The notes under the pieces are model-generated. The model ran no database searches and was not told the origin of the DNA. It worked only from the letters and a program-made list of their open reading frames with translations. A DNA stretch of 64,000 nucleotides from Firmicutes bacterium CAG:321_26_22 (GTDB lineage: Bacteria; Bacillota_I; Bacilli_A; RF39; UBA660), in assembly GCA_001916775.1 (NCBI GenBank), contig MNTB01000030.1, positions 33,962-97,961 on the forward strand, written 5' to 3'. Positions 10,410-56,779 of this stretch are shown here, one piece after another (the stretch's first letter is position 1; each line of letters opens with the position of its first letter). Made by a program: the position numbers and the translations under genes.

Positions 10410-10804
10410 CCATATAACTTCTATTTATATATATAGATGCAGGCACGACAAAAACTCACACCCACATCTCATTTTTTTTACTTTTATTTTTGATGAGATA
10501 AAGGTGTGATATTTATAGTAAACATGATTACATTACCTACATATTTATACATAAATATCCCTCCACTTATAATATATTATAGTTTTTTATTTTTGTCAAT
10601 TGTTTTTACACTGCAAGCCATTTGTCTTGCTAGTGTTATTTGGAGTCTTTGGTCTCCAAATAAGTATTAATTATACTTATTATATATAAGTATGAAATAT
10701 ATACTTAAAGTAGTTTATTATTGGTATTTTTTTTGTTATTTTGAGTATAATAATAGTGCAATATACTTGACTTTTTATGATAGTTATAGTATCATTGTAT
10801 TACC

Positions 10805-10917
10805 GGAGAGAAATCTCGTCAGGTCGATAGCTCAATGTCGATTTTATTAAATTAAGTGTATGTTAAGTACACCGCTTGAGTTGGGGAGAGACTACTAGAT
10901 AGTCTCTTTTCTTTTTA
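10805..10917 (+). ncRNA. candidate ~110-nt small RNA (promoter TTGACT-17-TATCAT at 10769-10797, terminator at 10888-10917)
   Basis: Promoter-like hexamers and a terminator bracket a non-coding stretch. Convergent with the DUF3800 gene. Confidence 0.3.
10888..10917 (+). terminator. plus-strand rho-independent terminator (agagact-actagat-agtctct + TTTCTTTTT)
   Basis: Hairpin followed by a T-run on the plus strand. No plus-strand CDS ends here. Confidence 0.55.
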
Positions 10918-11703
10918 TGGGAATAATAGTTTATGATCGATAATATCAATATCAGAATCAATATTTGATAATGCTCTTCCTCTAGTAGTACCTGCTATTA
11001 AATCTGCTGCTTGCACTAAGTAACTCTTACCTGAATCTTGATATGTTAATCTTATTTCTAATTTTCCATATAATATATTTTTGTATATTATGTCATAATT
11101 AAAATTAGATATTCCATGTAGTAATTCTTCTGTTAGACCATCTTTTAAATTATAATAACCATTACTTTTTGTAGATTGTTCATCTATATTTATTATTAAT
11201 CTCACATTTTTATGTGGGTCTATTTTTTTATCTTTTATTAATTCTTCAATGGTACTTTTAATTAGTCTTCTTATTGTGTAATCTATGTATCTTCCTTTTG
11301 AGGCTTTATTATTTATAATATGATTATATACTTTTGTATTATTTATTACTAGGGCAATAGTATAATATTTACTTATGTAGTTCATAATCCTTCTTTTATG
11401 ACCTTTCTTGATATTTGTATTTTTTATTTCTTTACATTTTTTAGTACATTCTCCTTTTGTTTGGTCACAGTAAGAACATTTTATTTCATTTATTATTTGG
11501 CGATACTGCGTTATAAATTTATCTTTTTCTTGTTTTGATAAAAAGACTATTCCTGCATATACTGATACTTTTTCTTTTTTTGTTAATTTACCTGAATCAT
11601 CTAAATTTATATATATTTCTTGATATTCTTCTTTTTTATTCATGTAAGCGCTCCCTTCAATTGTTTTAATGTTTATTATAGCACTTACTTTTACTCTTGT
11701 CAT
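10915..11703 (-). CDS. DUF3800-family protein (likely start at the internal Met, MNKKEEYQEIYINLDDSG)
   Basis: N-terminal INLDDSG motif and C-terminal LVQAADLIAG motif, both hallmarks of DUF3800. Confidence 0.55.
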   Translation of the reverse strand: MTRVKVSAIINIKTIEGSAYMNKKEEYQEIYINLDDSGKLTKKEKVSVYAGIVFLSKQEKDKFITQYRQIINEIKCSYCDQTKGECTKKCKEIKNTNIKKGHKRRIMNYISKYYTIALVINNTKVYNHIINNKASKGRYIDYTIRRLIKSTIEELIKDKKIDPHKNVRLIINIDEQSTKSNGYYNLKDGLTEELLHGISNFNYDIIYKNILYGKLEIRLTYQDSGKSYLVQAADLIAGTTRGRALSNIDSDIDIIDHKLLFP

Positions 11704-11789: not shown

Positions 11790-11877
11790 TTATTTCAGAG
11801 ACATTTGGCCCAGTAAATTTTTTTGAAAGACTTTTGGCTTTCAAAAACCTCGAACAATGTAATGTGAGAGGGATATA
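11790..11877 (+). repeat. intergenic double-hairpin repeat, copy A (core CGAACAATGTAATGTGAGAGG)
   Basis: Shares the hairpin-T-run-hairpin-core architecture with copies at 17160, 21431, 43073, 48870 and 51867. Confidence 0.7.
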
Positions 11878-17159: not shown

Positions 17160-17241
17160 TTTATTTCAGAGACATTTGGCTCTGAAATTTTTTTGAAAGA
17201 CATTTGGCTTTCAAAACCTCGAACAACATAGTGTGAGAGGC
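17160..17241 (+). repeat. intergenic double-hairpin repeat, copy B (core CGAACAACATAGTGTGAGAGG)
   Basis: tcagag-ACATTTGG-ctctga, then T7, then gaaag-ACATTTGG-ctttc, then the core. Confidence 0.75.
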
Positions 17242-19215: not shown

Positions 19216-19262
19216 CCTATAGTCTTACGTGGTAAATTAGAGCCCTGTAGTCTCTAATTTAG

Positions 19263-20315
19263 TTATTTGGTTTTTCTTTTTACTTTTATTTTTGATAGTT
19301 CTTCAGCAATATCACTATATAGTTCTTTTTGACTTTGATAGTAGGCTTCAATTATATCTTTATTACTTGAATATATTCTCGTAGTCATGTCTATATATTC
19401 TCTATCTTCACTTGGTGCTGTTACTGCATCAGTTAATGTTGCAAGCACTTTTTTATTTTTCTTTTGTTTTGGTAGTATGTTAGTATATCCTGCTGCTGAT
19501 GTATCTATTAAGATATTTTCTTTTATACTACTTGGTTTATATATTCTAGATTGAGTTGGATCTAAATAATATGTATCTCCTTGGTAGACTGCTGTTGTTA
19601 TTTTATGATTACCTATTATAGTTAGTTTTTTATCTTTTTTAGGTATAGTATACTCATAATATTTATTTAGTTCTTCTTCATATTGATATACTAAATCTAA
19701 AAGATGAATGTTTGTTCTTTGATGTTCATTATGAATTTCTTCTAGCAGACTTATCATATTTTCTACATTATCTTGCATTACATCAAAATCACTTTGATAT
19801 ACAGTTAAAGTATTTCCTTCTATTCCATAAGCATTATATATTTCTTTTAACATAGTAGCTATATGACGACATACTGCTTCACCATTCATTATATTTGATG
19901 AGTATATATCTTTAATATCTCTAACTGTTGCTTCTCCAAAATGAAATTCTTTATTTTTAGATAAATAACCATCATATAACATCTTATTATAAAATGTATA
20001 TATCTCTATAGGATTTTGAAATTCAAATATTCTATTTAATTTTACATATTCAGAAAGAAATTCTTGATAAAGAATTTTTATTTTTTGAACTTCTTTTGTA
20101 TGTGATTCTGAATTTCTTGAAAATATTGCATAACTAACATTTATAATATTTGCTCCTAGTAACAAAAGACTTGCTAATAAACTATCACTTACGTTAGGTA
20201 AAAGAGATGTTCCTATTCCACATGACATGATTGCTATAGTATTAGCTTTAGATATTATTTCATTAGTATTATAACTTATGTTTCCATATATTTTATCTTT
20301 TAAATTATCTCTCAT
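19263..20315 (-). CDS. transglutaminase-like cysteine peptidase-fold membrane protein (paralog 1)
   Basis: NGEAVCRHIA (Cys), a His further on, and YYLDPTQ (Asp), consistent with a TGc Cys-His-Asp triad. N-terminal TM helices. Confidence 0.5.
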   Translation of the reverse strand: MRDNLKDKIYGNISYNTNEIISKANTIAIMSCGIGTSLLPNVSDSLLASLLLLGANIINVSYAIFSRNSESHTKEVQKIKILYQEFLSEYVKLNRIFEFQNPIEIYTFYNKMLYDGYLSKNKEFHFGEATVRDIKDIYSSNIMNGEAVCRHIATMLKEIYNAYGIEGNTLTVYQSDFDVMQDNVENMISLLEEIHNEHQRTNIHLLDLVYQYEEELNKYYEYTIPKKDKKLTIIGNHKITTAVYQGDTYYLDPTQSRIYKPSSIKENILIDTSAAGYTNILPKQKKNKKVLATLTDAVTAPSEDREYIDMTTRIYSSNKDIIEAYYQSQKELYSDIAEELSKIKVKRKTK

Positions 20316-20316
20316 A

Positions 20317-21345
20317 TTATCTTTTTTCCTTTCTCTTTACTTTTATATTTGACAATAGATTTGATATATAATTATATAATTCTTGATGTTCTTTATAAAA
20401 TCTTTCTAATATATCTTTATTTTGTTTATAAATATTAATAGTGCTTTTGACATATTTTAAATCTTCACTAAATGGTGTTGATGGATTTGCTTTCATTGCT
20501 TTAGAAGAATTTGCTCTTGGTATTATTTTAGTATCTATTCGACCATCTTCAGATATTAAAATTTTTTGATTATTCATACTTGGCTTATACATTCTTGTTT
20601 GAGTTGGATCTAAATAATAGTCTTTACCTTGATAAGTGGCTTTAGTTATACGATGATTTGTTAATTTACCTATGTCTTCTGGTGATATATAATAACTAAA
20701 AGCTTCCTGTATTTTATCTTCGAGTAAGTAGGTTAAATCTTCTACTGGGATACCTTTTATATCACTTACTTTTTGTAATTCTTTTTGATAATATGATAAC
20801 ATACTTTTATCTGTTGTAGTATCTTTTTGAAATACACTAATATCATAACTTGTTATGCCATAGTCTAAATAAATATCTTTTAACATTTGTGCTATATGAC
20901 GACATACTGCTTCTCCATTTATTATATTTGTTCCTTGTATAGTCGTTATGTCTTTAACTTTATCTTTTCCAAAGTGAAATTCTTTATCTTTAGATAAATA
21001 TCCAGCATATAACATTTTATTATATAATGTATATATTTCTACAGGATTTTGAAAGTCAAATATTTTATTTAGTTTATTATAGTCCTTTATTAAATTATTA
21101 TATAATTTTCTTATTTCTATTATATCTTTTGTATGTAATGATAATCTTTCTTCTTCACTATATATATAATATATCATATTTAATATGCTTAACATCATTA
21201 ACGATGCGGCATTATTTAAATTTGCTCCTAGTGAGAAGAAGCCTGTACCAAAGGTTGTTAATATTAGTCCTAGATTTATATCACTTATTAATTCACTAGT
21301 ATTATAGTTTATATTACTATATATTTTCTTTATTATTTTATCCAT
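20317..21345 (-). CDS. transglutaminase-like cysteine peptidase-fold membrane protein (paralog 2)
   Basis: Same motifs (INGEAVCRHIAQ, HRITKATYQGKDYYLDPTQ). Tandem paralog with conserved motifs and the same domain order. Confidence 0.5.
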   Translation of the reverse strand: MDKIIKKIYSNINYNTSELISDINLGLILTTFGTGFFSLGANLNNAASLMMLSILNMIYYIYSEEERLSLHTKDIIEIRKLYNNLIKDYNKLNKIFDFQNPVEIYTLYNKMLYAGYLSKDKEFHFGKDKVKDITTIQGTNIINGEAVCRHIAQMLKDIYLDYGITSYDISVFQKDTTTDKSMLSYYQKELQKVSDIKGIPVEDLTYLLEDKIQEAFSYYISPEDIGKLTNHRITKATYQGKDYYLDPTQTRMYKPSMNNQKILISEDGRIDTKIIPRANSSKAMKANPSTPFSEDLKYVKSTINIYKQNKDILERFYKEHQELYNYISNLLSNIKVKRKEKR

Positions 21346-21430
21346 AACAATTCCCCTTCATATGTGCTGGGTATTATACCATATATTATAAAAAAAAGCA
21401 AATTTTTGTTTGCTTATGATAAAACTTAAT

Positions 21431-21506
21431 TTAAAGACTTTGGCTTTAAATTACTATAGAAAGACCTTAGGCTTTCTATAGCAGTGAACAACGAAGTGTG
21501 AACTCT
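21431..21506 (+). repeat. intergenic double-hairpin repeat, copy C (core GTGAACAACGAAGTGTGAACTC)
   Basis: ttaaag-ACTTTGG-ctttaa, then ctatagaaag-ACCTTAGG-ctttctatag, then the core. Confidence 0.75.
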
Positions 21507-41840: not shown

Positions 41841-41948
41841 AATAATATCACTGTTACTAAAAGATGTCAATATGTTTATATTATTTTTTATCAACCATAT
41901 TTATTATATATAAGTTAATTATTATATACTATTATATGTTAAAAATAA

Positions 41949-41976
41949 AAACCACTTGTATTTTTTTACAAGTGGT
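41949..41976. terminator. bidirectional terminator (aaccacttgt-T7-acaagtggtt)
   Basis: 10-bp stem flanked by A/T runs on both sides, just downstream of the lipoprotein gene stop. Confidence 0.65.
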
Positions 41977-41984
41977 TAATTTTA

Positions 41985-42923
41985 TTATCTAGTTAATGTT
42001 CTTGTTTTAGCTTTTTCTACTGTATTAATATCATTAGATAATGATAATTCTTCTAACTCTTCTTTTGTTAAATCACTTAATGGTACTATGTAAAGATTAT
42101 CGTTAGTTATAAATCCTCTTACTACATTAGTATTAGTTTTCCATATTCTTGTATAATAGATACCATCATTGTCATAGTAGAAAGAAATGTCTGTAGCAGA
42201 ATTTATTGGTGAAGAAAGGTTTTCTTCTGTACCAAAAAACTCATATTGAACTGAATTACTATTAAATAATACACCTATTGCTTCTAAATAACTACCTTTC
42301 AATAATATGTATTTTGGTAATTCTCCTTCATACTCAAGAAAATCTTTATTATTTAATCTATTTTCATAACTTTCTCTCAATTTTAGAACAAAGTACTGTC
42401 CATCTATATCTTCTTTTTTACCTGTATTTAGTATATTATTGATGCCTTTGTCTACGTATTTGCTAGTACTGATATTATCAATTATCATACAGTCGCTTTT
42501 CCATCCAGATGATGGATTGATAGTCCAAGTATTTTTATTTCCTGCAACCACATAACCTTCTGGTGCAGCAACTTCAGTTAATGTATACAATCCATCCTTT
42601 ATATTTTCTATTCTATGTGCTTCTTTTGAACTACTAATCCAACTTTCTATTAAGTTATTATTTTCATCTCTAAGTTCAAATTTAGCACCATCTAGTAACA
42701 TACCATTTTCAACGTCTGTAACGGAAACTTCGCAAAACCAAGATTCTTCTATTTTAGTGTGACCTTCAATTGTTTCTTGTTTTGTTGTTGGCTCAAAAGA
42801 ATCACTTTCTTGTTTCTTTTTGCCACATCCTGTTAATCCAAATGAAGTTAATGTTAAACTAGATGCAAGCATTAATGATATTAGTCTTCTTCTTGTAGTT
42901 TCATTAATATAATTATTTTTCAT
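41985..42923 (-). CDS. lipoprotein (lipobox LTGC), 312 aa
   Basis: Signal peptide followed by Cys (SLTLTSFGLTGCGKK). Confidence 0.6.
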   Translation of the reverse strand: MKNNYINETTRRRLISLMLASSLTLTSFGLTGCGKKKQESDSFEPTTKQETIEGHTKIEESWFCEVSVTDVENGMLLDGAKFELRDENNNLIESWISSSKEAHRIENIKDGLYTLTEVAAPEGYVVAGNKNTWTINPSSGWKSDCMIIDNISTSKYVDKGINNILNTGKKEDIDGQYFVLKLRESYENRLNNKDFLEYEGELPKYILLKGSYLEAIGVLFNSNSVQYEFFGTEENLSSPINSATDISFYYDNDGIYYTRIWKTNTNVVRGFITNDNLYIVPLSDLTKEELEELSLSNDINTVEKAKTRTLTR

Positions 42924-42989
42924 TTTTTATCTTCTCCCTCTTAAAGTGATTAGTATTATATATTAATTTATTTGTTTTGTCAAGGTATC

Positions 42990-43037
42990 TCCGCTTATTT
43001 CCACTTATTTATCTCCGCTTATTTCCACTTATTTAGC
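42990..43037. repeat. tandem direct repeat, 2 x 24 nt (TCTCCGCTTATTTCCACTTATTTA), upstream of the lipoprotein gene
   Basis: The two 24-nt units are identical (position-by-position check), about 70 nt upstream of the start at 42923. Confidence 0.6.
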
Positions 43038-43072
43038 AAATAAATGAATTATTCTAAGAAAAAATAATTTTA

Positions 43073-43151
43073 GTTTTGAGATGACAAGCTCAAAACTTTT
43101 TTCTAATGACCTTAGGCATTAGAAAACGGCGAACAACATAGTGTGAGACGA
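43073..43151 (+). repeat. intergenic double-hairpin repeat, copy D (core GGCGAACAACATAGTGTGAGACG)
   Basis: tttgag-ATGACAAG-ctcaaa, then T6, then ctaatg-ACCTTAGG-cattag, then the core. Confidence 0.7.
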
Positions 43152-45059: not shown

Positions 45060-47141
45060 TTATAATTTGGTTATGTTTGGATGGCCTTTCATTAGTTTTC
45101 TTATACCAAATGGATGTGGAAAGGCTACGGTTATGATGGATTTATCAACACTTATTACTATTCCTTCACCAAACTCAGTATGTAAGATATGTTCTCCTAC
45201 TTCATAAGTGGCATTTTTGTCGACAGTCTTTTTTACTTTAGTTATTATTTTTTCTAGTTTTTTTGGTCTTTCTTTATCGATATATTCTTTATCTATTTCA
45301 TCAATAAATCTACTAGGTTGATTTCTCATTGGATTACCAAATAACATTCTGGTATCTGCTGATGTTATATATAATTCTTTTTTGGCTCTTGTTATAGCGA
45401 CATAACATAGTCTTCTTTCTTCTTCAATAGCGGAATTACTTCCATCATTAATAGCATTATAGTGAGGGAATATTCCTTCTTCCATACCGACAATGAAGAC
45501 ATAATCAAACTCTAGTCCTTTTACTGAATGAACGGTCATTAGGCTTACTCTATTTGAACTATCTTGATGTTCGGACATGTCACTTACTAATGAGATTTCG
45601 TCTAGGAAGTCTCCGAGTGAGGCAGTTCCGTATTCTTCTTCATAACTTTTGGTTACACCTTTGAACTCATTTAGGTTCTCTAGTCTTATTTCATCTTCGA
45701 GTAATTTGGATGTTGATAGTTCTTTTTTGATACCGGTTTTTTCTAAAATTTCATCTATTAATTCAGTTAGTGATAATGATTCACTAGCTTTTGTTAGGTC
45801 TTCGATTAGGTTTTTGAACTCTAGTTCTTTTCCTTTACTTATTGTTTCATATAGAGATAATTCTCTAGTTGTTGCTTCTTCAGTTAGAGTCTCAATTGTT
45901 TTATCTCCGATTCCTCTTCTTGGGGTATTTATTACTCTAAGCAAACTTACATCATCTTTATGATTATTTATTAGCCTTAAGTAACATAATAGGTCTTTTA
46001 TTTCTTTTCTGTTATAGAAGTAGAAACTTCCTACGACTCTATATTTAATATTTTTCTTTAGCATTTCTTCTTCAATAACACGAGACTGGGCATTAGTACG
46101 ATATAATACCGCTATATCTTCTTCGTTTATGCCTTCACTTAATAGTCTTTTTATTTCAGTTCCGACGAATGATGCTTCTTCTTTTTCGTTTGCTACTTCT
46201 TTATATTTTATTTTATTACCAGTTGCATTATTACTCCATAGGTTTTTATCTTTTCTTTCATGATTGTTTTTGATTACGCTATTAGCGGCATTTAATATGG
46301 TTTTGGTTGAACGATAGTTTTCTTCAAGTAGGATTGTTTTGGCCTCAGGATAATCTTTTTCGAAGTTTAGGATATTCTTGTAGTTGGCTCCTCTAAAGGC
46401 ATATATTGCTTGATCATTATCTCCTACTACGAAGATATTTCGATACTTTGCTGATAGTAATTTACTAAAGGTATATTGGGCTTCATTGGTATCTTGATAC
46501 TCATCTATTAGGATGTATTTATATCTATCTTGATATTCTTCTAATACACGAGGATAGTTTCTGAATAGTTTTATTGGTAGTATTAGTAAGTCATCAAAAT
46601 CTACGGAATTACCATTTTTTAGTTTTTGCTGATATTCTTTATAGACTTCTACTACTTTGTGATCAAACTCTACTTTAGCAAATGAATCTATACTCATCAT
46701 TTCATTTTTAGCAGAACTTATTTTATTTTTTATTTCTCTTGGGTTATATCTATCTTTAGACATATTTTTATCTTTTAATATTTTCTTTATGATTGTTAGG
46801 ACATCATCGCTATCTATAATAGTAAAGTTTTTTTCATAGCCTAACATGCTATAGTTTTCTTTTAATATTTTTAGGCCTAAGGAATGGAATGTTGATATTT
46901 GGATATTATAGGCTTCTTTTCCTATTAATCTTACTACTCTATCTTTCATTTCTTTAGCGGCTTTATTAGTAAATGTTATAGCTAATATGTTATATGGACT
47001 TATACCATTTTCGATTAGATTTGCTATTCTATTTGTTAATACTTTGGTTTTTCCTGAACCAGCTCCTGCTAAAACAAGCATTGGTCCATCTATATGATTA
47101 ACTGCTTTTTGTTGTTCTTTATTTAATTCTTGTATTTGCAT
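45060..47141 (-). CDS. pcrA: ATP-dependent DNA helicase PcrA (UvrD family)
   Basis: AGAGSGKTKVLT, DEYQDTN and VGDNDQAIYAFRGA helicase motifs. C-terminal Tudor-like domain. Confidence 0.9.
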   Translation of the reverse strand: MQIQELNKEQQKAVNHIDGPMLVLAGAGSGKTKVLTNRIANLIENGISPYNILAITFTNKAAKEMKDRVVRLIGKEAYNIQISTFHSLGLKILKENYSMLGYEKNFTIIDSDDVLTIIKKILKDKNMSKDRYNPREIKNKISSAKNEMMSIDSFAKVEFDHKVVEVYKEYQQKLKNGNSVDFDDLLILPIKLFRNYPRVLEEYQDRYKYILIDEYQDTNEAQYTFSKLLSAKYRNIFVVGDNDQAIYAFRGANYKNILNFEKDYPEAKTILLEENYRSTKTILNAANSVIKNNHERKDKNLWSNNATGNKIKYKEVANEKEEASFVGTEIKRLLSEGINEEDIAVLYRTNAQSRVIEEEMLKKNIKYRVVGSFYFYNRKEIKDLLCYLRLINNHKDDVSLLRVINTPRRGIGDKTIETLTEEATTRELSLYETISKGKELEFKNLIEDLTKASESLSLTELIDEILEKTGIKKELSTSKLLEDEIRLENLNEFKGVTKSYEEEYGTASLGDFLDEISLVSDMSEHQDSSNRVSLMTVHSVKGLEFDYVFIVGMEEGIFPHYNAINDGSNSAIEEERRLCYVAITRAKKELYITSADTRMLFGNPMRNQPSRFIDEIDKEYIDKERPKKLEKIITKVKKTVDKNATYEVGEHILHTEFGEGIVISVDKSIITVAFPHPFGIRKLMKGHPNITKL

Positions 47142-47213
47142 CTTGTTACCTCACTTTTCTCTATTTCATTGTATCATATTTTAGAGATATTATAAAGGGT
47201 AAGATGTTTATTT

Positions 47214-47268
47214 TGTTATTTTTTGTCACTTTAAGTCTTGAGTCTTAAAGTGCTATTTAAAGCCAATT
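47214..47268. repeat. hairpin repeat, family 2 (cactttaagtcttgagtcttaaagtg-CTATTTAAAGCCAATT); second copy at 56567-56617
   Basis: About 80% identity over roughly 50 nt between the two intergenic copies. Confidence 0.5.
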
Positions 47269-47382
47269 TTTTTATTGTCTTTAAATAGGATATCAGCCAT
47301 ATTTATTATAGAGTAGTTAGGGTTATATACTCTTTTTATTGGTTTATTAATAAAAAAACTTAATAGTTTGTTGTCTATTAAG

Positions 47383-48423
47383 TTATTTTTTACTTTTTTT
47401 GTAATGGCATTTCGGATAATTACTGCAGCCAATGAAAATTCCATATTTTCCTTTACGCTCTATTAATTTACCTCCACAATCTGGACAGATCATACTATTT
47501 TTCGAACTATAATCTTCCATTTTATTACTTTTACCCATATTACATCTATCACATAGGGTTTGAAGATTACTCATGACAGTTTTTCCGCCTTTAGATACTG
47601 GAATAATGTGATCAACGTGAAGTTTTGCTCCGTCTTTAGCTGATATACCACATAATTTGCAAGTAAAGTTATCTCTTTTCAAAACATTATATCTAATATC
47701 ATCATTCATAATTTTTCTTTCCTGCTTTATGGTTTCTTCGTATTTATTACCATTTTGCCATTCTTTATACAATTTAACTAAATCTTCAAAAGAATAGTTT
47801 CCATATCTAGTTTCATTAACCTTTCCTGCATTACTTCTATAATAAACTTCTAGCTTTAATTTTATTAAAAACTCTTTTCTTTTATGAATAGAATCATTTA
47901 ATACTCTATTTTCTATTTTTTGAAATTTTTTTGATGAATAATTTGTTTTATTTTTAGATTTATAATTAATAATTTTATCTACTTCTTTGGTATATTCTTC
48001 TAATAAATCGATATTATATATAGCATTTTCTATATCAGTTCTAATTAAATCAATATTATTTTCTATATGATATTTTATAATACTTGATCCTGTCACTCTC
48101 TCTAAACTTTTTCTTGAGTATTCGCGGTCTATAATATTATGTTTTTTCTTTGTTATCCTTTTAAAATGATATTTTTCGTTTAATTTATTCAATTCTTGTA
48201 TTTTTATACTTGATTTTGATACTTCTTCATTTTCTTTTTTTATCATTTTTCTTATTACAAATATATATAATATTAGTGGAAACAATCCTATCAAAGTGCT
48301 GATGACTACAATTGTTTGTTCATTTAATGCTAATAATTTAAATAATATATATGATGTATAATAACTAATATAACCACTAATGATAATTAATGTTGTTTTT
48401 TGCCATTTCTTCATATTTGACAC
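47383..48423 (-). CDS. membrane-anchored HNH endonuclease with a C-terminal topoisomerase-type C4 zinc finger
   Basis: Two N-terminal TM helices. HNH motif LHVDHIIPVSKGGKTVMSNLQTLCDRCN. CPDCGGKLIERKGKYGIFIGCSNYPKC matches the zf-C4_Topoisom pattern. Confidence 0.65.
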   Translation of the reverse strand: MSNMKKWQKTTLIIISGYISYYTSYILFKLLALNEQTIVVISTLIGLFPLILYIFVIRKMIKKENEEVSKSSIKIQELNKLNEKYHFKRITKKKHNIIDREYSRKSLERVTGSSIIKYHIENNIDLIRTDIENAIYNIDLLEEYTKEVDKIINYKSKNKTNYSSKKFQKIENRVLNDSIHKRKEFLIKLKLEVYYRSNAGKVNETRYGNYSFEDLVKLYKEWQNGNKYEETIKQERKIMNDDIRYNVLKRDNFTCKLCGISAKDGAKLHVDHIIPVSKGGKTVMSNLQTLCDRCNMGKSNKMEDYSSKNSMICPDCGGKLIERKGKYGIFIGCSNYPKCHYKKSKK

Positions 48424-48514
48424 CTCTTTTTTATTATAACATACATTTTAAATAATCAATATATAATTTAACTAAGCAATTTGACAAAAGTATATATTTA
48501 TGCTATTATTAGTA

Positions 48515-48628
48515 TGTAAGCAAGGGAACTTGCATAAAATAAAAATAGGAAACATTCAATAGTCACAATTGAGTGTTGCCAATAATTTGGTTTCACCTGA
48601 CTTAAAGCATTAAGTTAGGTGATTTTCT
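48515..48628 (+). ncRNA. candidate type I antitoxin antisense sRNA (promoter TTGACA-17-TATTAT at 48481-48509; terminator hairpin 48585-48614 + T-run)
   Basis: Promoter and terminator bracket about 110 nt of non-coding sequence. Its 3' end lies 3 nt from the stop of the convergent 27-aa hydrophobic ORF. Confidence 0.45.
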
Positions 48629-48630
48629 TT

Positions 48631-48714
48631 TTAATTAAATGTTTTAAATAACAATATAATCAAAAGGAAGATTGTCATAGTTTGAAAGAAAATTAAAAAA
48701 GCTTTCTTGCTCAT
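48631..48714 (-). CDS. candidate type I toxin: 27-aa hydrophobic peptide MSKKAFLIFFQTMTIFLLIILLFKTFN
   Basis: Found by manual translation. Strong RBS GGAAGGGAGG 7 nt upstream. Promoter TTGTTT-18-TATAAT at about 48781-48815 (minus). Single predicted TM helix with a KK N-terminus. Confidence 0.5.
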   Translation of the reverse strand: MSKKAFLIFFQTMTIFLLIILLFKTFN

Positions 48715-48869
48715 AATATCGCCTCCCTTCCTTAATAGAAGTTCGGCAAGCACCCAACTTATTTGAATATCTCCTAATACAATTATAACATTTTTTATAT
48801 CTTAAAAACAAGCGAACACCTTAATATTTATGGTGTTTTCTTTAATATTTACTATAACTTTACAAACAA

Positions 48870-49009
48870 TGTAAATAATTCATAGACTTCTACTGATGGC
48901 TATGAATTACTATAGAAAGACATTAGGCTTTCTATAGCAGTGAACAACGAAGTGTGAACTCTAAAAAAGAAGGATTTATTTTTTCCTTCTTTTAAATATT
49001 TTTACTAGT
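48870..49009 (+). repeat. intergenic double-hairpin repeat, copy E; 48910-49009 is 100% identical to 51899-51998, and 49010-49046 is a degraded copy of the amidase 3' coding end
   Basis: Base-by-base comparison with copy F. Includes the last 6 codons plus stop of the Amidase_2 gene. Confidence 0.8.
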
Positions 49010-49040
49010 CTCTCTAATTATTTATCTAAGTCATTATTAT

Positions 49041-49934
49041 TTATATTTTTTCTAAGACTCCTAATTCTAAATCTTTTATTGTATATAAGTGCTCAATTTT
49101 ATCATAGGCATCTTCTAGATTCAGTCTAGATTTGTTCCAACCATTTCCATCTGTAATCCAAACAAATTTAACACCATTTAGTTTATTAATTTCATTATTT
49201 AGTTCTACATAACTTTTTGCAGTTTCATTCGGTTTAGATCCTTGTGTTCCATAAAAATTCACTTCCATTACTATTAATTCGTTATTTGAAGGACTCTTAA
49301 AAACAAAATCAAACTTCTTTGTTGCCTTTCCTATTGCACATAGATTTGTTCCATATTCTTTATCAATATCTTTATATTTCATTTGTTTTTGATATGGTAC
49401 TCCAAGTTTTTTTATGAATTCCTCTACTAAGTCTTCCATTATTTTTCCACTGCGATTTTTTCTACTATTTGAATCTAATCCCACTTCTATCCCTATCGCA
49501 TAATCAACAAGATTCTTAATTTTTCTATTACTTATTAAGTCAAATAATCCACTATTTTTTAAAAAATCTGCATAATTGTTGATCGGCTTGTCAATTTCTT
49601 TAAAATCGTAACAAATAAATTTTTCTTCTAGAAATTTAAAGTCCATATCTTTTATGGAATTTAACATATCTACTGTTGATGCATTAATTATATGAAATTT
49701 ATATTCGTGAGTTGCTAATAAAATCGGTATTGATTTCATTATTTCTGGATACTCATTTATTAAGTCAACAAATTCTTCCTCTATATTTTCTTTTCCAATC
49801 AGGCTATTTAATAAGTTTAAATGTCTTTCATAATCTTTGATATTTAAATAAACTTTAGAAAAATCAACAAAAAAATCCGCTGGGGTTATACTTTTTTTTA
49901 ATGATAACATTAGGTCATTAAAATTTCTTTTCAC
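49041..49934 (-). CDS. putative Type II restriction endonuclease (DpnII/MboI-like, GATC-specific) - third gene of the R-M cassette
   Basis: The gene order Dam-like MTase, N6_N4 MTase, then a roughly 290-aa protein mirrors the S. pneumoniae DpnII cassette (dpnM-dpnA-dpnB). Start overlaps the upstream MTase. Confidence 0.5.
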   Translation of the reverse strand: MKRNFNDLMLSLKKSITPADFFVDFSKVYLNIKDYERHLNLLNSLIGKENIEEEFVDLINEYPEIMKSIPILLATHEYKFHIINASTVDMLNSIKDMDFKFLEEKFICYDFKEIDKPINNYADFLKNSGLFDLISNRKIKNLVDYAIGIEVGLDSNSRKNRSGKIMEDLVEEFIKKLGVPYQKQMKYKDIDKEYGTNLCAIGKATKKFDFVFKSPSNNELIVMEVNFYGTQGSKPNETAKSYVELNNEINKLNGVKFVWITDGNGWNKSRLNLEDAYDKIEHLYTIKDLELGVLEKI

Positions 49935-50697
49935 TTATATCACTTTCCTTTCTTCTTATTGTTAAATCTAAATATTCTTTTTCTTTTTCTATTCCTATAT
50001 ATCTTCTTTTTAATCTGCTTGCCGCTATTCCTGTTGTACCGCTTCCATTAAATGGATCTAATATTAAATCATTTTCCTCTGTAGAAGCAAGTATTATTCT
50101 TTCTAATATTTCAATTGGTTTTTGTGTTGGATGTTTACCACAAGTCTTTTCGCTAGGCTTTGTTAAACTAGTTTCCCATACATCTTTCATTTGCTTATTA
50201 TTATTTATTTTTTTCATTAGTGAGTAATTAAACTTATGTTTATTTTTTTTGTCGGCTTTTTTAGCCCAAAGTATTGTTTCAGTAGAATGAGTAAATGCTC
50301 TGCAACTAATATTTGGCGGTGGGTTTAATTTTCTCCAAGTAATGTTATTTATTATTTTAAATCCCTCTTCTTCTAATGCCATTCCTATTGAATAAATATT
50401 ATGCATGGTTCCACTAATCCAAATAGTACCATTTTCTTTTAGTATTTTTTTACATAGTCTAATCCATTTTTTATTAAATTCGTGTTTTTCTTTTATACTA
50501 ATTGCATTGTCCCATGGACCTTTATTAACTGATACCATCTTTCCAGCACTACAAGATATTCCATTATTTGATAAAAAGTATGGTGGATCTGCAAATACCA
50601 TATCAATACTATTTGGCTCTATATTTCTTAGTACTTTTAATGAATCTCCTTGTATTAATTTGAAATTATCTTCTTCATAATAATATTTTTTTATCAT
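49918..50697 (-). CDS. DNA methyltransferase, N6_N4_Mtase family (DpnA-like second methylase)
   Basis: Motif IV DMVFADPPY precedes motif I ILDPFNGSGTTGIAA (beta-class order). Confidence 0.8.
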   Translation of the reverse strand: MIKKYYYEEDNFKLIQGDSLKVLRNIEPNSIDMVFADPPYFLSNNGISCSAGKMVSVNKGPWDNAISIKEKHEFNKKWIRLCKKILKENGTIWISGTMHNIYSIGMALEEEGFKIINNITWRKLNPPPNISCRAFTHSTETILWAKKADKKNKHKFNYSLMKKINNNKQMKDVWETSLTKPSEKTCGKHPTQKPIEILERIILASTEENDLILDPFNGSGTTGIAASRLKRRYIGIEKEKEYLDLTIRRKESDISEKKF

Positions 50698-50714
50698 ATT
50701 ATTTATCCTATATA

Positions 50715-51569
50715 TTATAGGTCAAAGCCTCTTTTATTTTCATAATTTGTAATAATAACTTCTTCTACTTTGCCTCTTTTTTTACCATTGGCGTTGATAC
50801 TTCTCTTTGCTTCTATTAAATGTATATTATAATCTTTATAAAGTTCATTTATTAGTTCAGTATTATGATTAGATAACATTACGTAGCAGCCTTTGTCTGA
50901 TAATTCCCTATATACTCTGGCTAACCTCTTTTGTTGTTCTTTACCAAAGCCATCCTCTGTATAACTATTGAAAGTTGAGGTATCTGAATCATATGGTGGA
51001 TCAAAATATATAAAATCTCCTTTTTTTGCTTCTTTTACTGCTTCTTCAAAATCTGTTGATAATATTTTTATATCATTGTAATTTAAAAATCCACATATAA
51101 TTCCTAAGTTTTGTCCTTCATAGGTATTTACTTTTGTTTTTTTACCAAATGGTACATTAAATTCGTTTTTACTATTTACTCTGTATAATCCATTAAAACA
51201 AGCTTTATTTAAATAAATTGTTCTTGCTGCTCTTTTATAATCTACTACTTTATTAAATTTTTTCTTATCTCTATCCATATTCCTTATTGTATAATAATAT
51301 TCTTCTGAATGTTTCATTTCATGATTATTTAGTTCTCTGCACATTGCTTCAAATTTTTTTTCATCTTTAATGCATTCGTATACATTCATAAGTTCTTTAT
51401 TTGAGTCATTAATAACTGCATTCTTTGGAGATAATTCAAATAGTAATGCTCCCCCTCCAACAAATGGTTCATAATATGTATTAAACTCATCAGGAACATA
51501 TTTTTTTAATTTATCTATTATTTGTCTTTTTCCGCCTGCCCATTTTACAAATGGCCTTCCTTTTATCAT
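50715..51569 (-). CDS. Dam-family (D12 class) DNA adenine methyltransferase, GATC-type (DpnM-like)
   Basis: FVKWAGGKRQI N-terminal hallmark, EPFVGGGALLFEL SAM site, IYFDPPY motif IV. Confidence 0.85.
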   Translation of the reverse strand: MIKGRPFVKWAGGKRQIIDKLKKYVPDEFNTYYEPFVGGGALLFELSPKNAVINDSNKELMNVYECIKDEKKFEAMCRELNNHEMKHSEEYYYTIRNMDRDKKKFNKVVDYKRAARTIYLNKACFNGLYRVNSKNEFNVPFGKKTKVNTYEGQNLGIICGFLNYNDIKILSTDFEEAVKEAKKGDFIYFDPPYDSDTSTFNSYTEDGFGKEQQKRLARVYRELSDKGCYVMLSNHNTELINELYKDYNIHLIEAKRSINANGKKRGKVEEVIITNYENKRGFDL

Positions 51570-51866
51570 TATTTCACCATCCTATGTTTATTATAATCTT
51601 GCTTTCTATACAATTATAACATTTTTTACATGCTAAAAACAAGCGAACACCTAATATTTATTATATTTTTTGCTATGTTTGATAAATGTTTTTATTTATC
51701 CTATTATTTATTAGTATGTAAACAATAAAATTTATATAAAATAAAAAACAGGAAACGTTTAATAGTAATAATTGAGTGTTATTAATAATTTAGTTTCAAC
51801 TGTAAATGCAATATAGTCAATCACAATTCGGTTATTTGTAGAATTTATAATAATTAATATATACTT

Positions 51867-51998
51867 AAAATCAGAGACTATTAAGAGGCTCTGATTTTCT
51901 ATAGAAAGACATTAGGCTTTCTATAGCAGTGAACAACGAAGTGTGAACTCTAAAAAAGAAGGATTTATTTTTTCCTTCTTTTAAATATTTTTACTAGT
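51867..51998 (+). repeat. intergenic double-hairpin repeat, copy F (100-nt perfect direct repeat of copy E)
   Basis: aatcagag-ACTATTAAGAGG-ctctgatt, then ctatagaaag-ACATTAGG-ctttctatag, then GTGAACAACGAAGTGTGAACTC. Confidence 0.8.
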
Positions 51999-52664
51999 TT
52001 TATCTATAAACCATAACAATGGATTTTGTCTCTCTAATTCTTTATCTAAGTTATTATTATTTGTATCTTTATTATCTTTATTGTCATTTCTTTCTCTATT
52101 TTCATCTTCTTTTTCTGGCTCTTTAGTTGTCTCTTTATTATCTTCTTTTAGTTCTTCTACTGGTGGTTTAGTAGTTGTAAACTTACTATAATTATTAGTC
52201 CATGCTGCATCATAATATGTATTTTCTGTTCCTAATGCCATATATAATCCTTTATTATAGTGGTATTTTTTTACTATTGACTCAGTATTTTTAGTTAGTA
52301 ACATTTGCCCTCCGCCATAACCTGCAGTTTCAGTTAGGTAGATATCTTCAGTGTTATATATCTTTGTTCCTACTATGAAAGGTCTGGCTCTAGTTTCTGA
52401 TAGTTTTTCATTTATCATATTTAGAAATCTATCCCACCCCATATCTAGTGTTCTATGAGGACAATATTTATTAGTGTAATCCTGGTGTTTTGTTACTTTA
52501 TCGATATCCCAATTATATCTATTTAATATGTCTACGATTAGGTCAACTGCATTCTGTTCGGCTTTAATAAATCGGTCTCCTCCTGATAATGAATAACATA
52601 TTTCAATGGCTATTCCTTCTCTATTTCCTTTACCATTTCCATCCATATAATCTAATGTTTCCAT
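51981..52664 (-). CDS. N-acetylmuramoyl-L-alanine amidase (Amidase_2/PGRP), exon 2 (C-terminal part) of an intron-split endolysin
   Basis: REGIAIEICYS and KYCPHRT continue the Amidase_2 fold that begins in 53462-53698. The C-terminal linker is rich in K/E/D/N. Confidence 0.7.
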   Translation of the reverse strand: METLDYMDGNGKGNREGIAIEICYSLSGGDRFIKAEQNAVDLIVDILNRYNWDIDKVTKHQDYTNKYCPHRTLDMGWDRFLNMINEKLSETRARPFIVGTKIYNTEDIYLTETAGYGGGQMLLTKNTESIVKKYHYNKGLYMALGTENTYYDAAWTNNYSKFTTTKPPVEELKEDNKETTKEPEKEDENRERNDNKDNKDTNNNNLDKELERQNPLLWFIDKTSKNI

Positions 52665-53467
52665 TAGTACTGACTATCTCTTACATTTTAAAATGCACAC
52701 CCGTTTCGAGTTATGTATCAATAATAACCCTACGAAGCGATTGGGCTTCTAGTCGATACAGGTTCCTTTTTGACAAATTTATATCCACCAATTTGTTTTC
52801 CTATACCATTTATATTTCTTGAAATATGTCTTATATCTAAATTTGTTTCTTTACTTGCTTCATTAATACTCTTATATTCTCTTATAAAGTTGCCTTCTAA
52901 ATCATATTGTAGAATCGGTGTAATATCGGTTGATTTTCTCAAACCAGTCTTATAAGCATGAGTATTATTTTGATAAAGAGTACACCATTCCAAATTATCA
53001 ATATAATTATTTTGTTTATTTCCATCTATGTGATTTACGTATGAATAATTATTTGGATTGGGTATAAACGCTTCAGCCACAAGTTTGTGAATATGTTTGT
53101 TTTTTTCTACCTTGTTTTTTGTTAAACATATTCTCCTGTAGCCTCCATTTATTGTTCCTTGTGTTATTTTTTCTTTTACTTTTATAATATTATATCTTTT
53201 TGTCAAATAATTATATCTGGTGTAATTTCTAGCAAGTATTTTTACATTTCCAAAGTTAGATATTTCGTATAGTCCTTCATAATCTTTTATAGGTTTCCAT
53301 ATTTCTTTCATCACCATCACCCATAAAGATTATATAAAAATAGTAAATATATGTCAATAGGCTTCCCACGGGATTGCCATATCTTAAAGACTTAGGTTTC
53401 CCCGTTAGCACACAAAAATGTGTACCCCACTGATTAATGGAAAAAGTGTGTTCAGGCAATGTTACTT
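52662..53467 (-). mobile_element. group I intron (about 806 nt) carrying an HNH homing-endonuclease ORF, inserted in the endolysin gene
   Basis: Exon 1 ends ...CAGGU. The intron segment GCCUG 10 nt downstream forms P1 with a terminal U-G wobble. The intron ends in G (omega) and an exon 1 + exon 2 join is in frame (...NGWHAG/ETLDYMDGNGKGNREGIAIEI). A P7-like GACTA/TAGTC pair and an AAGAgATAGTC S-like element sit near the 3' end. Confidence 0.65.
52730..53320 (-). CDS. HNH homing endonuclease (NUMOD4 + HNH_3), intron-encoded
   Basis: WKPIKDYEGLYEISNFGNV (NUMOD4) and HIHKLVAEAF...VNHIDGNKQNNYIDNLEW (HNH). Confidence 0.8.
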   Translation of the reverse strand: MMVMKEIWKPIKDYEGLYEISNFGNVKILARNYTRYNYLTKRYNIIKVKEKITQGTINGGYRRICLTKNKVEKNKHIHKLVAEAFIPNPNNYSYVNHIDGNKQNNYIDNLEWCTLYQNNTHAYKTGLRKSTDITPILQYDLEGNFIREYKSINEASKETNLDIRHISRNINGIGKQIGGYKFVKKEPVSTRSPIAS

Positions 53468-53698
53468 ACCTGCGTGCCAACCATTTCTATTTTCAGCCAA
53501 TCCTTGAACTATTTCTTTATCATCTACAGCATAATGAAATGATGTTTCATAGTCATTATTTGTCATATAACTTATTTCATTTCGAGCAGAAGCATCGTTA
53601 GCGGTATTATGAACTACTATTCTAGTTGGTGTCATTTCATAAGGGCATTTTAGATAATATCTACTCTCTGGTACTATCTTCTTTACTATGTTTACCAT
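53462..53698 (-). CDS. N-acetylmuramoyl-L-alanine amidase (Amidase_2), exon 1 (N-terminal part)
   Basis: RIVVHNTANDASARNEISYM...SFHYAVDD...GWHAGK matches the Amidase_2 N-terminus. It stops at a TAA immediately after the predicted 5' splice site. Confidence 0.7.
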   Translation of the reverse strand: MVNIVKKIVPESRYYLKCPYEMTPTRIVVHNTANDASARNEISYMTNNDYETSFHYAVDDKEIVQGLAENRNGWHAGK

Positions 53699-53975
53699 TA
53701 TTTCCCTCCTTTATTAATTTTTCTATATTATGAATAAGATTATATCCTGTTTCGGCGAATAGTCCACTTAAGGTTATGGCTAAATTGAAGTCTTTGGTTA
53801 TTATAAAATAGAATATTGATACTGATAGTCCAATTACTATGTTTTGTATTATTATTAGATTGTTATTTACATAAGGACATCTTTTAGAAATAAAACCAAG
53901 TATCCATGTTAATGTCATAGTAAGTAGGGTTATTACTAGTTCGGTATTTTGATTTATGAATTCCATGTTTTTCAC
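53661..53975 (-). CDS. phage-type holin (104 aa, 2-3 TM helices, charged C-terminus)
   Basis: Hydrophobic helices plus a KEGNNGKHSKEDSTRE tail. Overlaps the amidase start by 38 nt, the classic holin-endolysin arrangement. Confidence 0.6.
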   Translation of the reverse strand: MKNMEFINQNTELVITLLTMTLTWILGFISKRCPYVNNNLIIIQNIVIGLSVSIFYFIITKDFNLAITLSGLFAETGYNLIHNIEKLIKEGNNGKHSKEDSTRE

Positions 53976-54032
53976 CTCTATTCATAATCACTTTATTTTA
54001 TGTGAAATTATTTTTTATTGTAATAGAGATTG

Positions 54033-54062
54033 TCCTTAGAAATAAAAAAAGATTATATTTCT
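54033..54062 (-). terminator. rho-independent terminator downstream of tsaD (ggattata-gaaa-tataatc, then U-run on minus)
   Basis: Hairpin followed by TTTTTTATTT on the minus strand. Confidence 0.55.
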
Positions 54063-54069
54063 ATAATCC

Positions 54070-55086
54070 TTATTTCCACTCTTTATATATGGTGTCTGTT
54101 GCCATAGCATTTAATGTTAGATCAGCAAAGATATTTTTTTGATATGCAAAGTAGGCAGCAGCGGCGATCATGGTAGCGTTATCTGTACAATATTTTAGTT
54201 CAGGGAAAGATATGTGAATGTTTTCTTTTTGACATTCTTCAGTTAGTTTTTCTCTTAAACCGGAGTTTGCTGACACACCACCCGCTACGACAAGATTTGA
54301 TACTTTATATTCTTTTATAGCTTTCATTGTTTTCTTTGTTATTATTCCTACGACTCTATTTTGGAATGTCGTACATAAATTTTCTTTGTTTATGGTGTTT
54401 CCTCTTTGTTCTTCGTTATGTACAAGATTTATGACAGCGGATTTGATACCACTAAAACTAAAGTTATAGGTACTATCGTCTAGAGGATATGGTAAGTTAT
54501 AGGTATCTTTTCCTAGATGGGCTAGTTTATCTACTTTTGGTCCTCCTGGATATTCTAGACCTAATACTTTGGCTACTTTATCGTAACATTCTCCAACAGC
54601 ATCATCTAGAGTACCTCCTATTTTGATAAAGGAATAGTCTTCTTTCATATAGATTAGTTCGGTATGTCCTCCACTTACTACTAAGGCTATTAGAGGGAAT
54701 GTTAATCTTTCTTTTAGGTTGTTGGCATAGATGTGTCCTATGATATGATGAACTGGTATTAATGGTTTTCCTGTTACTAAAGAGATTGTTTTAGCGGCTT
54801 GTACTCCTATTAAAAGACTACCTATTAGTCCTGGACCATATGTTACTCCGATAGCGGTTATGTCTTCTAATTTCATATTTGCTTTAGATAGAAGTTCTTC
54901 TAAAACAATTGTTATGTTTTCAATATGGTTACGACTAGCTATTTCAGGGACTACTCCTCCATAATTTTTATGAATATCTATTTGACTTAGCACAATAGTG
55001 GCTATTTCTTCACTACCATTTTTAACAATACTCATACTTGTTTCATCACAACTTGATTCTATTCCTAATATATATACATCTTTCAT
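54070..55086 (-). CDS. tsaD: tRNA N6-adenosine threonylcarbamoyltransferase TsaD
   Basis: GIESSCDETS, HHIIGHIYAN and VSGGHTEL motifs. Confidence 0.95.
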   Translation of the reverse strand: MKDVYILGIESSCDETSMSIVKNGSEEIATIVLSQIDIHKNYGGVVPEIASRNHIENITIVLEELLSKANMKLEDITAIGVTYGPGLIGSLLIGVQAAKTISLVTGKPLIPVHHIIGHIYANNLKERLTFPLIALVVSGGHTELIYMKEDYSFIKIGGTLDDAVGECYDKVAKVLGLEYPGGPKVDKLAHLGKDTYNLPYPLDDSTYNFSFSGIKSAVINLVHNEEQRGNTINKENLCTTFQNRVVGIITKKTMKAIKEYKVSNLVVAGGVSANSGLREKLTEECQKENIHISFPELKYCTDNATMIAAAAYFAYQKNIFADLTLNAMATDTIYKEWK

Positions 55087-56524: not shown

Positions 56525-56566
56525 TAGTTTTATATTTTTTTTACATTATTATTTTATTTTTAATAT

Positions 56567-56617
56567 CACTGTAAGTCTTAAATAGTCTTACAGTGCTACT
56601 TATAGCCAATTAAATTG
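56567..56617. repeat. hairpin repeat, family 2, copy 2 (cactgtaagtcttaaatagtcttacagtg-CTACTTATAGCCAATT)
   Basis: See 47214-47268. Confidence 0.5.
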
Positions 56618-56779
56618 TCTATAAGTAGTATATCAACCATATCTATTATATAGAAGCAAGAAATATATACTTAAATATTGTTTGTTAGGGAGATAAATAT
56701 TTTTGGCTCACTAACACCACGGAAAACTTAAATTTATTTAAGGCTCCCGTGGAAAAAAATAACCTAGAATTAATCTAGA

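Follow-up and report, generated by a model that had tools for sequence, protein, structure and literature searches.

A DpnII-family restriction-modification operon between duplicated copies of an amidase 3' end in an uncultured gut Bacilli lineage

The window analyzed here is a 64,000-nt stretch of Firmicutes bacterium CAG:321_26_22 (contig MNTB01000030.1, positions 33,962-97,961 of the forward strand, assembly GCA_001916775.1). Downstream of an Amidase_2 gene, it carries a restriction-modification (R-M) operon of the DpnII family, dpnMAB, enclosed by two direct copies of the amidase 3' end. The explanation that best accounts for the locus as a whole, and one that we consider highly probable, is a DpnII-family dpnMAB operon made of imported open reading frames (ORFs), served by a local promoter and terminator, flanked by a target duplication and placed there by recombination.

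The window was compared with 30 related metagenome contigs or loci, all of them metagenome assemblies. An exact-protein look-up found identical proteins on human-gut metagenome contigs, and the nearest genome record, CP091726.1, is a 1.46 Mb metagenome-assembled genome (MAG) chromosome with 96-97% identity to the window. The source of the window is an uncultured gut Bacilli lineage with a small genome (1.46 Mb). Housekeeping genes (uvrA, pcrA and tsaB/D/E) surround the site, and the locus is therefore chromosomal; a prophage context was considered and rejected on these neighbors and on the holin-amidase pair, which is common to all strains. In most loci, the genes called in the 10 kb around the site include no integrase or transposase. 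A tRNA scan found no tRNA genes, which excludes a tRNA-type attachment site.

The dpnMAB operon and its direct repeats

Running from the amidase gene toward lower coordinates, the locus consists of the following parts:

51981..53698, minus strand: Amidase_2 gene, the insertion target, split by an 824-nt intron-like insert (52644-53467)
51887..52070, minus strand: right (amidase-proximal) repeat copy, with amidase codons a, terminator 51952-51982, core 51927-51951 and hairpin h1 51899-51926
51867..51898, minus strand: second hairpin, u1, beyond the right copy, with the repeat stopping precisely at the h1/u1 junction
51679..51802, plus strand: decayed copy of a small RNA (sRNA)-like module between the right repeat and the operon promoter, with promoter TTGATA-17-TATTAT kept and terminator lost
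51608..51652, minus strand: operon promoter D3', TTGTTT-18 nt-TGtTATAAT, 93% identical to 48777-48821
49041..51573, minus strand: imported block of 2533 bp, three ORFs only, with DNA homology to foreign cassettes
50715..51569, minus strand: dpnM, the first gene of the operon, a Dam-family (D12 class) N6-adenine DNA methyltransferase
49918..50697, minus strand: dpnA-like gene, a second methyltransferase (N6_N4, beta class)
49041..49934, minus strand: dpnB, a full-length DpnII-family Type II restriction endonuclease
48898..49050, minus strand: left repeat copy, directly past the dpnB stop, with a' 49008-49050, terminator 48963-48993, core 48938-48962 and h1 48910-48937
48876..48909, minus strand: second hairpin, h3, beyond the left copy; it also follows the lone repeat of the empty site

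All three ORFs are intact, lie on the minus strand and follow the order M-A-B (51569>50715, 50697>49918, 49934>49041), as in the dpnM-dpnA-dpnB operon of S. pneumoniae (PMC3812788). The dpnA-like gene and dpnB overlap by 17 nt. A preliminary description of this DNA had proposed a DpnII-like cassette enclosing a Dam-like methyltransferase, an N6_N4 methyltransferase and a putative restriction endonuclease, and the gene order and database matches bear out each of these assignments. The dpnM product matched Pfam MethyltransfD12 (E 2e-61) and the NCBIfam model TIGR00571 dam (283.7 bits, cutoff 114.85), and its top PDB relative, aligned over the full length, is S. pneumoniae DpnM (2dpm_A, E 9.5e-84). 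The second methyltransferase matched Pfam N6_N4_Mtase PF01555 (E 5.9e-63) and PADLOC MTase_II (E 1e-102); closest in the PDB is CcrM (6pbd, E 7e-58), followed by chains annotated as DpnA (5hek, E 2e-32). Residues 4-296 of the 297 in the dpnB product span the entire Pfam DpnII model PF04556 (1-278/278, E 1.2e-91), and PADLOC REase_II was also matched (E 1.8e-88). This endonuclease has 6286 homologues, with PF04556 present in all of those among the matches listed, and a PDB search with it returned no solved relative.

Judged by its sequence, the operon is a DpnII-family Type II R-M system with a predicted specificity for GATC. By homology, DpnM would methylate GATC in duplex DNA, the DpnA-like enzyme would be a second GATC methylase, whose pneumococcal counterpart acts on single-stranded DNA, and DpnB would cleave unmethylated GATC of incoming DNA. 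GATC occurs 69 times in the window against 161.6 expected (0.43). Only one other 4-nt palindrome is more depleted, in keeping with a long history of GATC restriction. Separately, across the whole window GCGC is depleted more than GATC (3 observed, 9.2 expected) and AGCT shows an observed/expected ratio of 0.62; these low counts, which are small, may hint at other R-M specificities, past or present.

The DNA of the operon shares 78% identity with dpnMAB cassettes in unrelated contexts (L037 and L039) from 51573 to 49041, and the homology ends there on both sides. These limits fall 4 nt ahead of the dpnM ATG and at the dpnB stop, and the imported DNA is therefore the three ORFs alone. In other genomes, the closest dpnMAB cassettes (endonuclease 78-82% identical) lie beside AIPR, HTH and serine-recombinase genes. 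The sequence before dpnM reads …TGTTATAATTG, and across the loci the same promoter is found in 17 copies ahead of dpnM and in 29 copies ahead of a hydrophobic ORF of 27 or 29 amino acids. The operon promoter is a paralogue of the promoter of this local toxin-like ORF, and the operon terminator is the duplicated amidase terminator. Upstream of the operon promoter, the decayed sRNA-like module retains a 10/12 promoter match and has a fold z-score of -1.5, and its toxin ORF is lost too.

The preliminary description had reported perfect 100-bp direct repeats, and sequence comparison confirmed them: 48910-49009 is identical to 51899-51998 at a spacing of 2989 bp. The match widens to 112 nt at 97% identity (48898-49009 versus 51887-51998). 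The left copy then runs on into the amidase 3' fragment a' at 49008-49050, 91% identical to 52028-52070 and offset by 31 nt; it had been described earlier as a degraded amidase sequence with a 31-nt deletion. On the minus strand, the repeat comprises the end codons and stop of the amidase gene, a terminator hairpin flanked by A and T, a 25-nt core, AGAGTTCACACTTCGTTGTTCACTG, and hairpin h1 with its 10-bp stem. Its amidase part, which had been given as the last six codons and the stop ahead of a double-hairpin element, does include the stop but holds five codons rather than six (18 nt, 51981-51998). Beyond the repeat, both flanks also share a promoter module (48777-48821 versus 51608-51652, 93%) and an sRNA-like segment (48506-48599 versus 51708-51802, 81-83%), and the order of these shared modules differs.

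The repeat had 0 matches in 100 shuffles, and the duplicated architecture is present in more than 15 independent assemblies. Chance is therefore excluded, and the same recurrence led us to reject an assembly artifact. Across the other 18 R-M-bearing loci, the direct repeat measures 180-196 bp (93-96% identical) or 272 bp (97% identical), and the spacing is 3031-3066 bp versus the 2989 bp of the window. The duplication is about 195 bp long in most strains and includes about 75 nt from the 3' end of the amidase coding sequence, together with the terminator, the 25-nt core and one hairpin. In those strains the start of the repeat is no more than about 10 nt from the dpnB stop and falls in AT-rich sequence, AAATAATAAT, that the amidase shares. 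The distal boundary is the exact 3' edge of h1.

Part of the repeat also occurs elsewhere. A third copy of h1 and the 25-nt core, about 58 nt of the repeat, lies past the uvrA terminator at 21454-21506 with one mismatch, and this site is kept in two related MAGs (L031 and L034). The repeat is therefore dispersed in part, and its amidase fragment is unique sequence. A 28-nt core scan of the genome collection gave 6 exact matches in 5 MAGs, at amidase or uvrA loci only. The 25-nt core is therefore low-copy and not a genome-wide repeat.

Alleles of the amidase-pcrA interval and the route of insertion

Comparison across strains separated several alleles. Allele A, found in the window and 18 site-spanning loci, has the order amidase, repeat, dpnMAB, repeat, small-ORF module and HNH gene; L009 also bears the R-M genes, and its contig stops inside dpnB. 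Allele C is an empty site with the amidase gene, a single repeat, the promoter and small hydrophobic ORF module and the HNH gene, without R-M genes. The contigs with allele C, eight in number, are the following:

L021, L023-L026 and L028-L030: single repeat copy, same flanks

Allele B has the amidase gene, a single repeat, two small-ORF modules and an opposite-strand DnaJ-domain gene (L001, L002, L004-L006 and L008); in PADLOC and NCBIfam, the DnaJ-domain protein matched the J-domain only and no defense family. Among species-representative genomes, L035 and L036 have small-ORF modules only, and L033 has a 424-amino-acid protein that is P-loop ATPase-like by sequence appearance. The interval between the amidase gene and pcrA is a variable hot spot at which several cargoes alternate.

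The insertion at the amidase 3' end that had been proposed agrees with the empty site in eight contigs and with the occurrence of two repeat copies only where R-M genes are present. Two copies without R-M genes, the arrangement named beforehand as refuting, were found at none of the examined loci. The nearest case is a decay product with dpnM only, the species-representative genome L032 (CP091726.1), which retains both repeat copies. In its oriented copy (3028-4100), dpnA and dpnB were lost at a AAAAAATA microhomology. The dpnM frame is broken at homopolymers only, which may be sequencing error. From the sequence, this deletion appears to be a route to an orphan Dam methylase.

The flanks of the two repeats differ in their ancestry. 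Past h1, the right copy leads into u1, the decayed sRNA module and the promoter, the sequences also found after the repeat of allele B. The left copy leads into h3, the promoter and the small ORF, just as the single repeat of allele C does. The joint between dpnB and a' sits in about 10 nt of AT-rich microhomology, the AAATAATAAT stretch described above. All 18 R-M-bearing loci share identical junctions, which argues for a single origin, and no recombinase gene lies near the R-M locus. The mixed flank ancestry and the microhomology joint suggest homology-facilitated illegitimate recombination, which is likely the simplest route. The donor would carry amidase, repeat, u1, promoter and dpnMAB, and the recipient would be of the empty-site type. 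One homologous crossover would fall inside the amidase gene, and one illegitimate joint would form at the microhomology, at the start of the recipient's amidase 3' fragment. Donor and recipient copies of the amidase 3' segment would then flank the insert, and recombination between the repeats would restore the empty allele seen in other strains. The duplication keeps the amidase gene whole.

The category of R-M "insertion with long target duplication" has published criteria (PMC2853133). At this locus, both R and M lie inside the insert, the insert is shorter than 20 kb, the direct repeat exceeds 30 bp (112 bp plus the 43-bp fragment in the window), and the repeat aligns to one copy in strains without the insert (the eight allele C contigs). 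As to mobility, the neighboring genes include no integrase or transposase, yet 58 nt of the repeat recur after uvrA and the hairpin is dispersed. The case fits the published category, with the reservation that the repeat is partly low-copy dispersed.

The main alternative is a Campbell-type integration, in which a dpnMAB circle with a captured amidase 3' end and terminator would enter by one crossover and leave through the repeats, giving back the empty site. Direct repeats of 180-272 bp flanking the insert and an empty site with one copy are what such integration predicts, and R-M units in long direct repeats have been proposed to amplify or be released through them (PMC2853133). We nevertheless consider a circle unlikely. 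The sequence downstream of the right copy (u1, decayed sRNA module and promoter) matches allele B at 98% and then 79%, which fits a linear donor fragment better; no circular form and no replication gene were seen at the locus; and the microhomology joint between dpnB and a' would still require a prior illegitimate event.

Homology-facilitated illegitimate recombination into an empty site, with the operon as interpreted here, also has points that count against it. The donor allele, R-M genes without the downstream duplicate, was not observed among the loci examined, and a recombining population fits both insertion into an empty allele and repeated loss from an R-M allele. The repeat is partly a dispersed element (the third copy at 21454), and involvement of this element in the event is possible. 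Given the many homopolymer errors of the L032 assembly, it is uncertain whether its dpnM ORF is intact. The GATC specificity and methylation are drawn from homology and site depletion, and CcrM, the nearest solved relative of the second methylase, recognizes GANTC, which makes a GATC specificity tentative for this enzyme.

The repeats of the window record further change after the insertion. Compared with all 30 other loci, only the right copy of the window has an 11-nt deletion (in the stretch 51981-52030), which on reading the sequence frameshifts the amidase C-terminal tail to …KTSKNI and stop versus the usual …KIIKLLVKIFKRRKK and stop. Only the left copy of the window has a 42-nt deletion, equal to the 11-nt deletion and 31 nt more. 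The two deletions share one end base, where the perfect 100 nt starts. In the simplest history, the 11-nt deletion would have arisen in one repeat copy, a gene-conversion tract over the deletion and the next 100 nt would have homogenized both copies, and the left copy would then have lost another 31 nt. Left-copy haplotypes elsewhere are mosaics of a diverged type and a common type; conversion is therefore recurrent, and perfect identity is no evidence for recent insertion. The repeats of other strains, 180-272 bp in length, are 93-97% identical, and the perfect match over 100 bp is therefore a mark of recent gene conversion and not of recent insertion. Comparison of the strains shows that the repeats have exchanged sequence through gene conversion since the insertion.

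Small-ORF modules, hairpins and other features of the window

The remaining features of the window are the following:

48631..48714, minus strand: ORF of a 27-amino-acid hydrophobic peptide, MSKKAFLIFFQTMTIFLLIILLFKTFN, behind promoter D3 (48777-48821), with a strong ribosome-binding site
48481..48632, plus strand: candidate antisense sRNA gene facing the small ORF, with its promoter at 48481-48509 and its terminator at 48593-48632
47383..48414, minus strand: HNH / Zn-ribbon protein of 343 amino acids (Pfam HNH_5, HNH, Zn_ribbon_Top1) with a putative membrane anchor
52730-53320, minus strand: HNH/NUMOD ORF in the amidase insert, homing-endonuclease-like
11820-11847, 17163-17216, 19233-19261, 21427-21481 and 43072-43126: hairpin sites 1-5, from a pattern scan
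47227-47288, 48876-48937, 51867-51926 and 56567-56628: hairpin sites 6-9, from the same pattern scan

The small ORF is intact in all 29 copies and occurs in two diverged versions, with 29 amino acids in the allele B version. The promoter of the convergent sRNA is the best match in the region (11/12, with TG), and its terminator is the sole terminator match there; the sRNA is about 120 nt long with a fold z-score of -5.9. Neither the 27- nor the 29-amino-acid peptide has a Pfam or NCBIfam match with E <1, and the candidate sRNA has no Rfam match at E <=1. The module 48481-48821 recurs across alleles as tandem, diverged and decayed copies, including a second diverged copy at L001 13519-13860. 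By its layout, 48481-48821 is a candidate type I toxin-antitoxin (TA) module.

Next to this module, the HNH gene is missing in L032, L035 and L036, with breakpoints at 47345 and 48480. By eye, the N-terminus of the HNH protein appears to form two hydrophobic helices, and its PADLOC matches to restriction endonuclease-like families are weak only.

The 824-nt insert of the amidase gene is present in the window, L001-L010, L014, L017, L019 and L020. In L011-L013, L015, L016, L018 and L021-L030 the insert is precisely missing and an intact amidase of 303-306 amino acids is encoded. Exon 1 ends in U, which is U·G-paired in a CAGGU/GCCUG P1 helix, the last base of the insert is G, and the amidase reading frame is preserved after predicted splicing. 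In a narrow scan, two sub-threshold Rfam Intron_gpI matches flank the HNH/NUMOD ORF on the correct strand (E 0.0054 and 0.044). By these features, the insert resembles a group I intron that encodes a homing endonuclease. A Rfam scan of 47100-54100 with E up to 1 left the hairpin elements, the sRNA candidate and the intron without a match. At the gathering threshold, the whole window gave DUF3800-I RNA as its sole family (10795-10919, plus strand, 65.6 bits, gathering score 44.2) and no match for the repeats of the R-M locus.

The hairpins in and around the repeats belong to a family. Most have perfect 10-bp stems (two have 9 bp). The apex, AG|CC-loop-GT|CT with a C·T mismatch, is conserved, and the stems vary with compensating changes. 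The hairpins usually occur as tandem pairs and in both orientations relative to neighboring genes. The window holds 12 strict matches versus 0 in shuffles, and two variants lie at 43072-43126. The nine hairpin sites in 64 kb extrapolate to about 200 per 1.46 Mb genome. Paralogous leader-like elements lie on the minus strand upstream of pcrA (47141-47331) and tsaE (56540-56690). Each combines a TATAAT box, an ORF of 14 or 15 amino acids (MADILFKDNKKIGFK / MVDILLIDNLIGYK) and a double hairpin whose stems show compensatory changes. Two neighboring paralogous ORFs of 350 and 342 amino acids, with function unassigned, lie at 19263-21345 (minus strand), downstream of the hairpin element associated with uvrA.

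Three variable hot spots adjoin hairpin pairs: amidase-pcrA, protease-tsaE and VanY-HTH_5. The second, at 56669-56676 upstream of tsaE, has either a MazG-like 99-amino-acid gene or a 1068-amino-acid gene inserted at one point. At the third, 41930-43062, the SpaA-domain gene 41985-42923 is replaced elsewhere by nothing, by a 107-amino-acid ORF or by an HTH/TM2/Ltp set. Both of these additional presence/absence hot spots fall within the same 20 kb. Hairpin edges as crossover points found no support, as the breakpoints at the two other hot spots lie 10-60 nt away. That the hairpins cause cargo gain and loss is a low-probability lead. The broader proposal, an undescribed repetitive extragenic palindrome (REP)-like family that marks and perhaps mediates cargo gain and loss at hot spots, with the R-M cassette as one cargo, we regard as quite improbable.

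Site-specific recombination would use the hairpins as attachment sites for an unidentified recombinase, integron- or IS200/REP-like, with the crossover between two hairpins. The distal repeat end exactly between h1 and the second hairpin, and the position of all three variable hot spots 10-60 nt from a double hairpin, are what it would predict. We find it very improbable, as there is no recombinase gene at or near the locus, the proximal repeat boundary lies within amidase coding sequence at an AT-rich microhomology and not at a hairpin, and the other breakpoints (56669-56676, 43048-43062, 47345 and 48480) are off hairpin edges. Hairpins that end conserved transcription units would adjoin variable DNA anyway. 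Landing of the R-M genes by chance between pre-existing copies of the scattered double-hairpin repeat is the least credible account and can hardly be entertained: the hairpin and core do have a third copy after uvrA, and 12 hairpins of the same design occur in the window, but the repeat also takes in unique sequence, namely about 75 nt of amidase coding DNA and the amidase terminator, and R-M-free alleles carry a single copy here.

Comparison with known systems

The locus offers a well-resolved natural case of a Type II R-M operon entering and leaving a chromosome without any recombinase. A single gut population displays its empty, full, converted and decayed (orphan Dam) forms. It also shows that imported DNA can be limited to ORFs, with the promoter and a duplicated terminator both taken from resident sequence. 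The locus predicts strain-level differences in GATC methylation, which would be relevant to methylation-based metagenome binning, phage host range and future genetics. R-M biology as known stays unchanged, and the case is a clean but ordinary example of defense gene turnover.

The small-ORF module resembles type I TA loci whose convergent RNAs overlap at their 3' ends (txpA/RatA, bsrG/SR4 and fst/RNAII) and the E. coli LDR repeats in its short hydrophobic ORF, strong ribosome-binding site and convergent RNA of about 120 nt, and resembles type I TA loci also in its diverged tandem copies in an intergenic hot spot. Unlike the known families, it has no Pfam, NCBIfam or Rfam match, and its toxin role is predicted.

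The operon resembles S. pneumoniae DpnII, and also MboI and LlaDCHI, in its three families, their order and the single strand (PMC3812788), and in the GATC-depleted host DNA. It differs in that about half of the aligned residues of the dpnM product are identical to DpnM by eye, in that no competence-type promoter is evident before dpnA and the promoter comes from a local small-ORF module, and in its host, an uncultured Bacilli lineage with a 1.46 Mb genome; a single-strand specificity of the second methyltransferase is putative.

The preliminary description had also drawn an analogy with the interchangeable pneumococcal DpnI/DpnII cassettes. As that DpnI/DpnII/DpnIII locus is outlined by Lacks et al. 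(1986), cited in PMC3812788, it likewise holds alternative gene sets between conserved flanks, one of them DpnII-type. The analogy is loose. At the locus studied here, the other contents are nothing at all (the empty site), a DnaJ-domain gene, an ATPase gene, an HNH gene or small-ORF modules, and gain and loss proceed via flanking direct repeats as an insertion or deletion with target duplication, not by plain allelic substitution. No mutually exclusive complementary R-M alleles (methyl-dependent versus methyl-sensitive) and no DpnI-like enzyme were found at the locus.

The locus also resembles the R-M insertions with long target duplications described before (Nobusato et al. 2000; Furuta, Abe and Kobayashi 2010, PMC2853133), and its repeat overlaps a gene 3' end, as in the H. 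influenzae cases. Unlike the published cases, the repeat here is partly low-copy dispersed and evolves in concert, and the insert comes without its own promoter and terminator. The host is a Bacilli-class MAG lineage, in which the empty, full and decayed states are sampled across a population.

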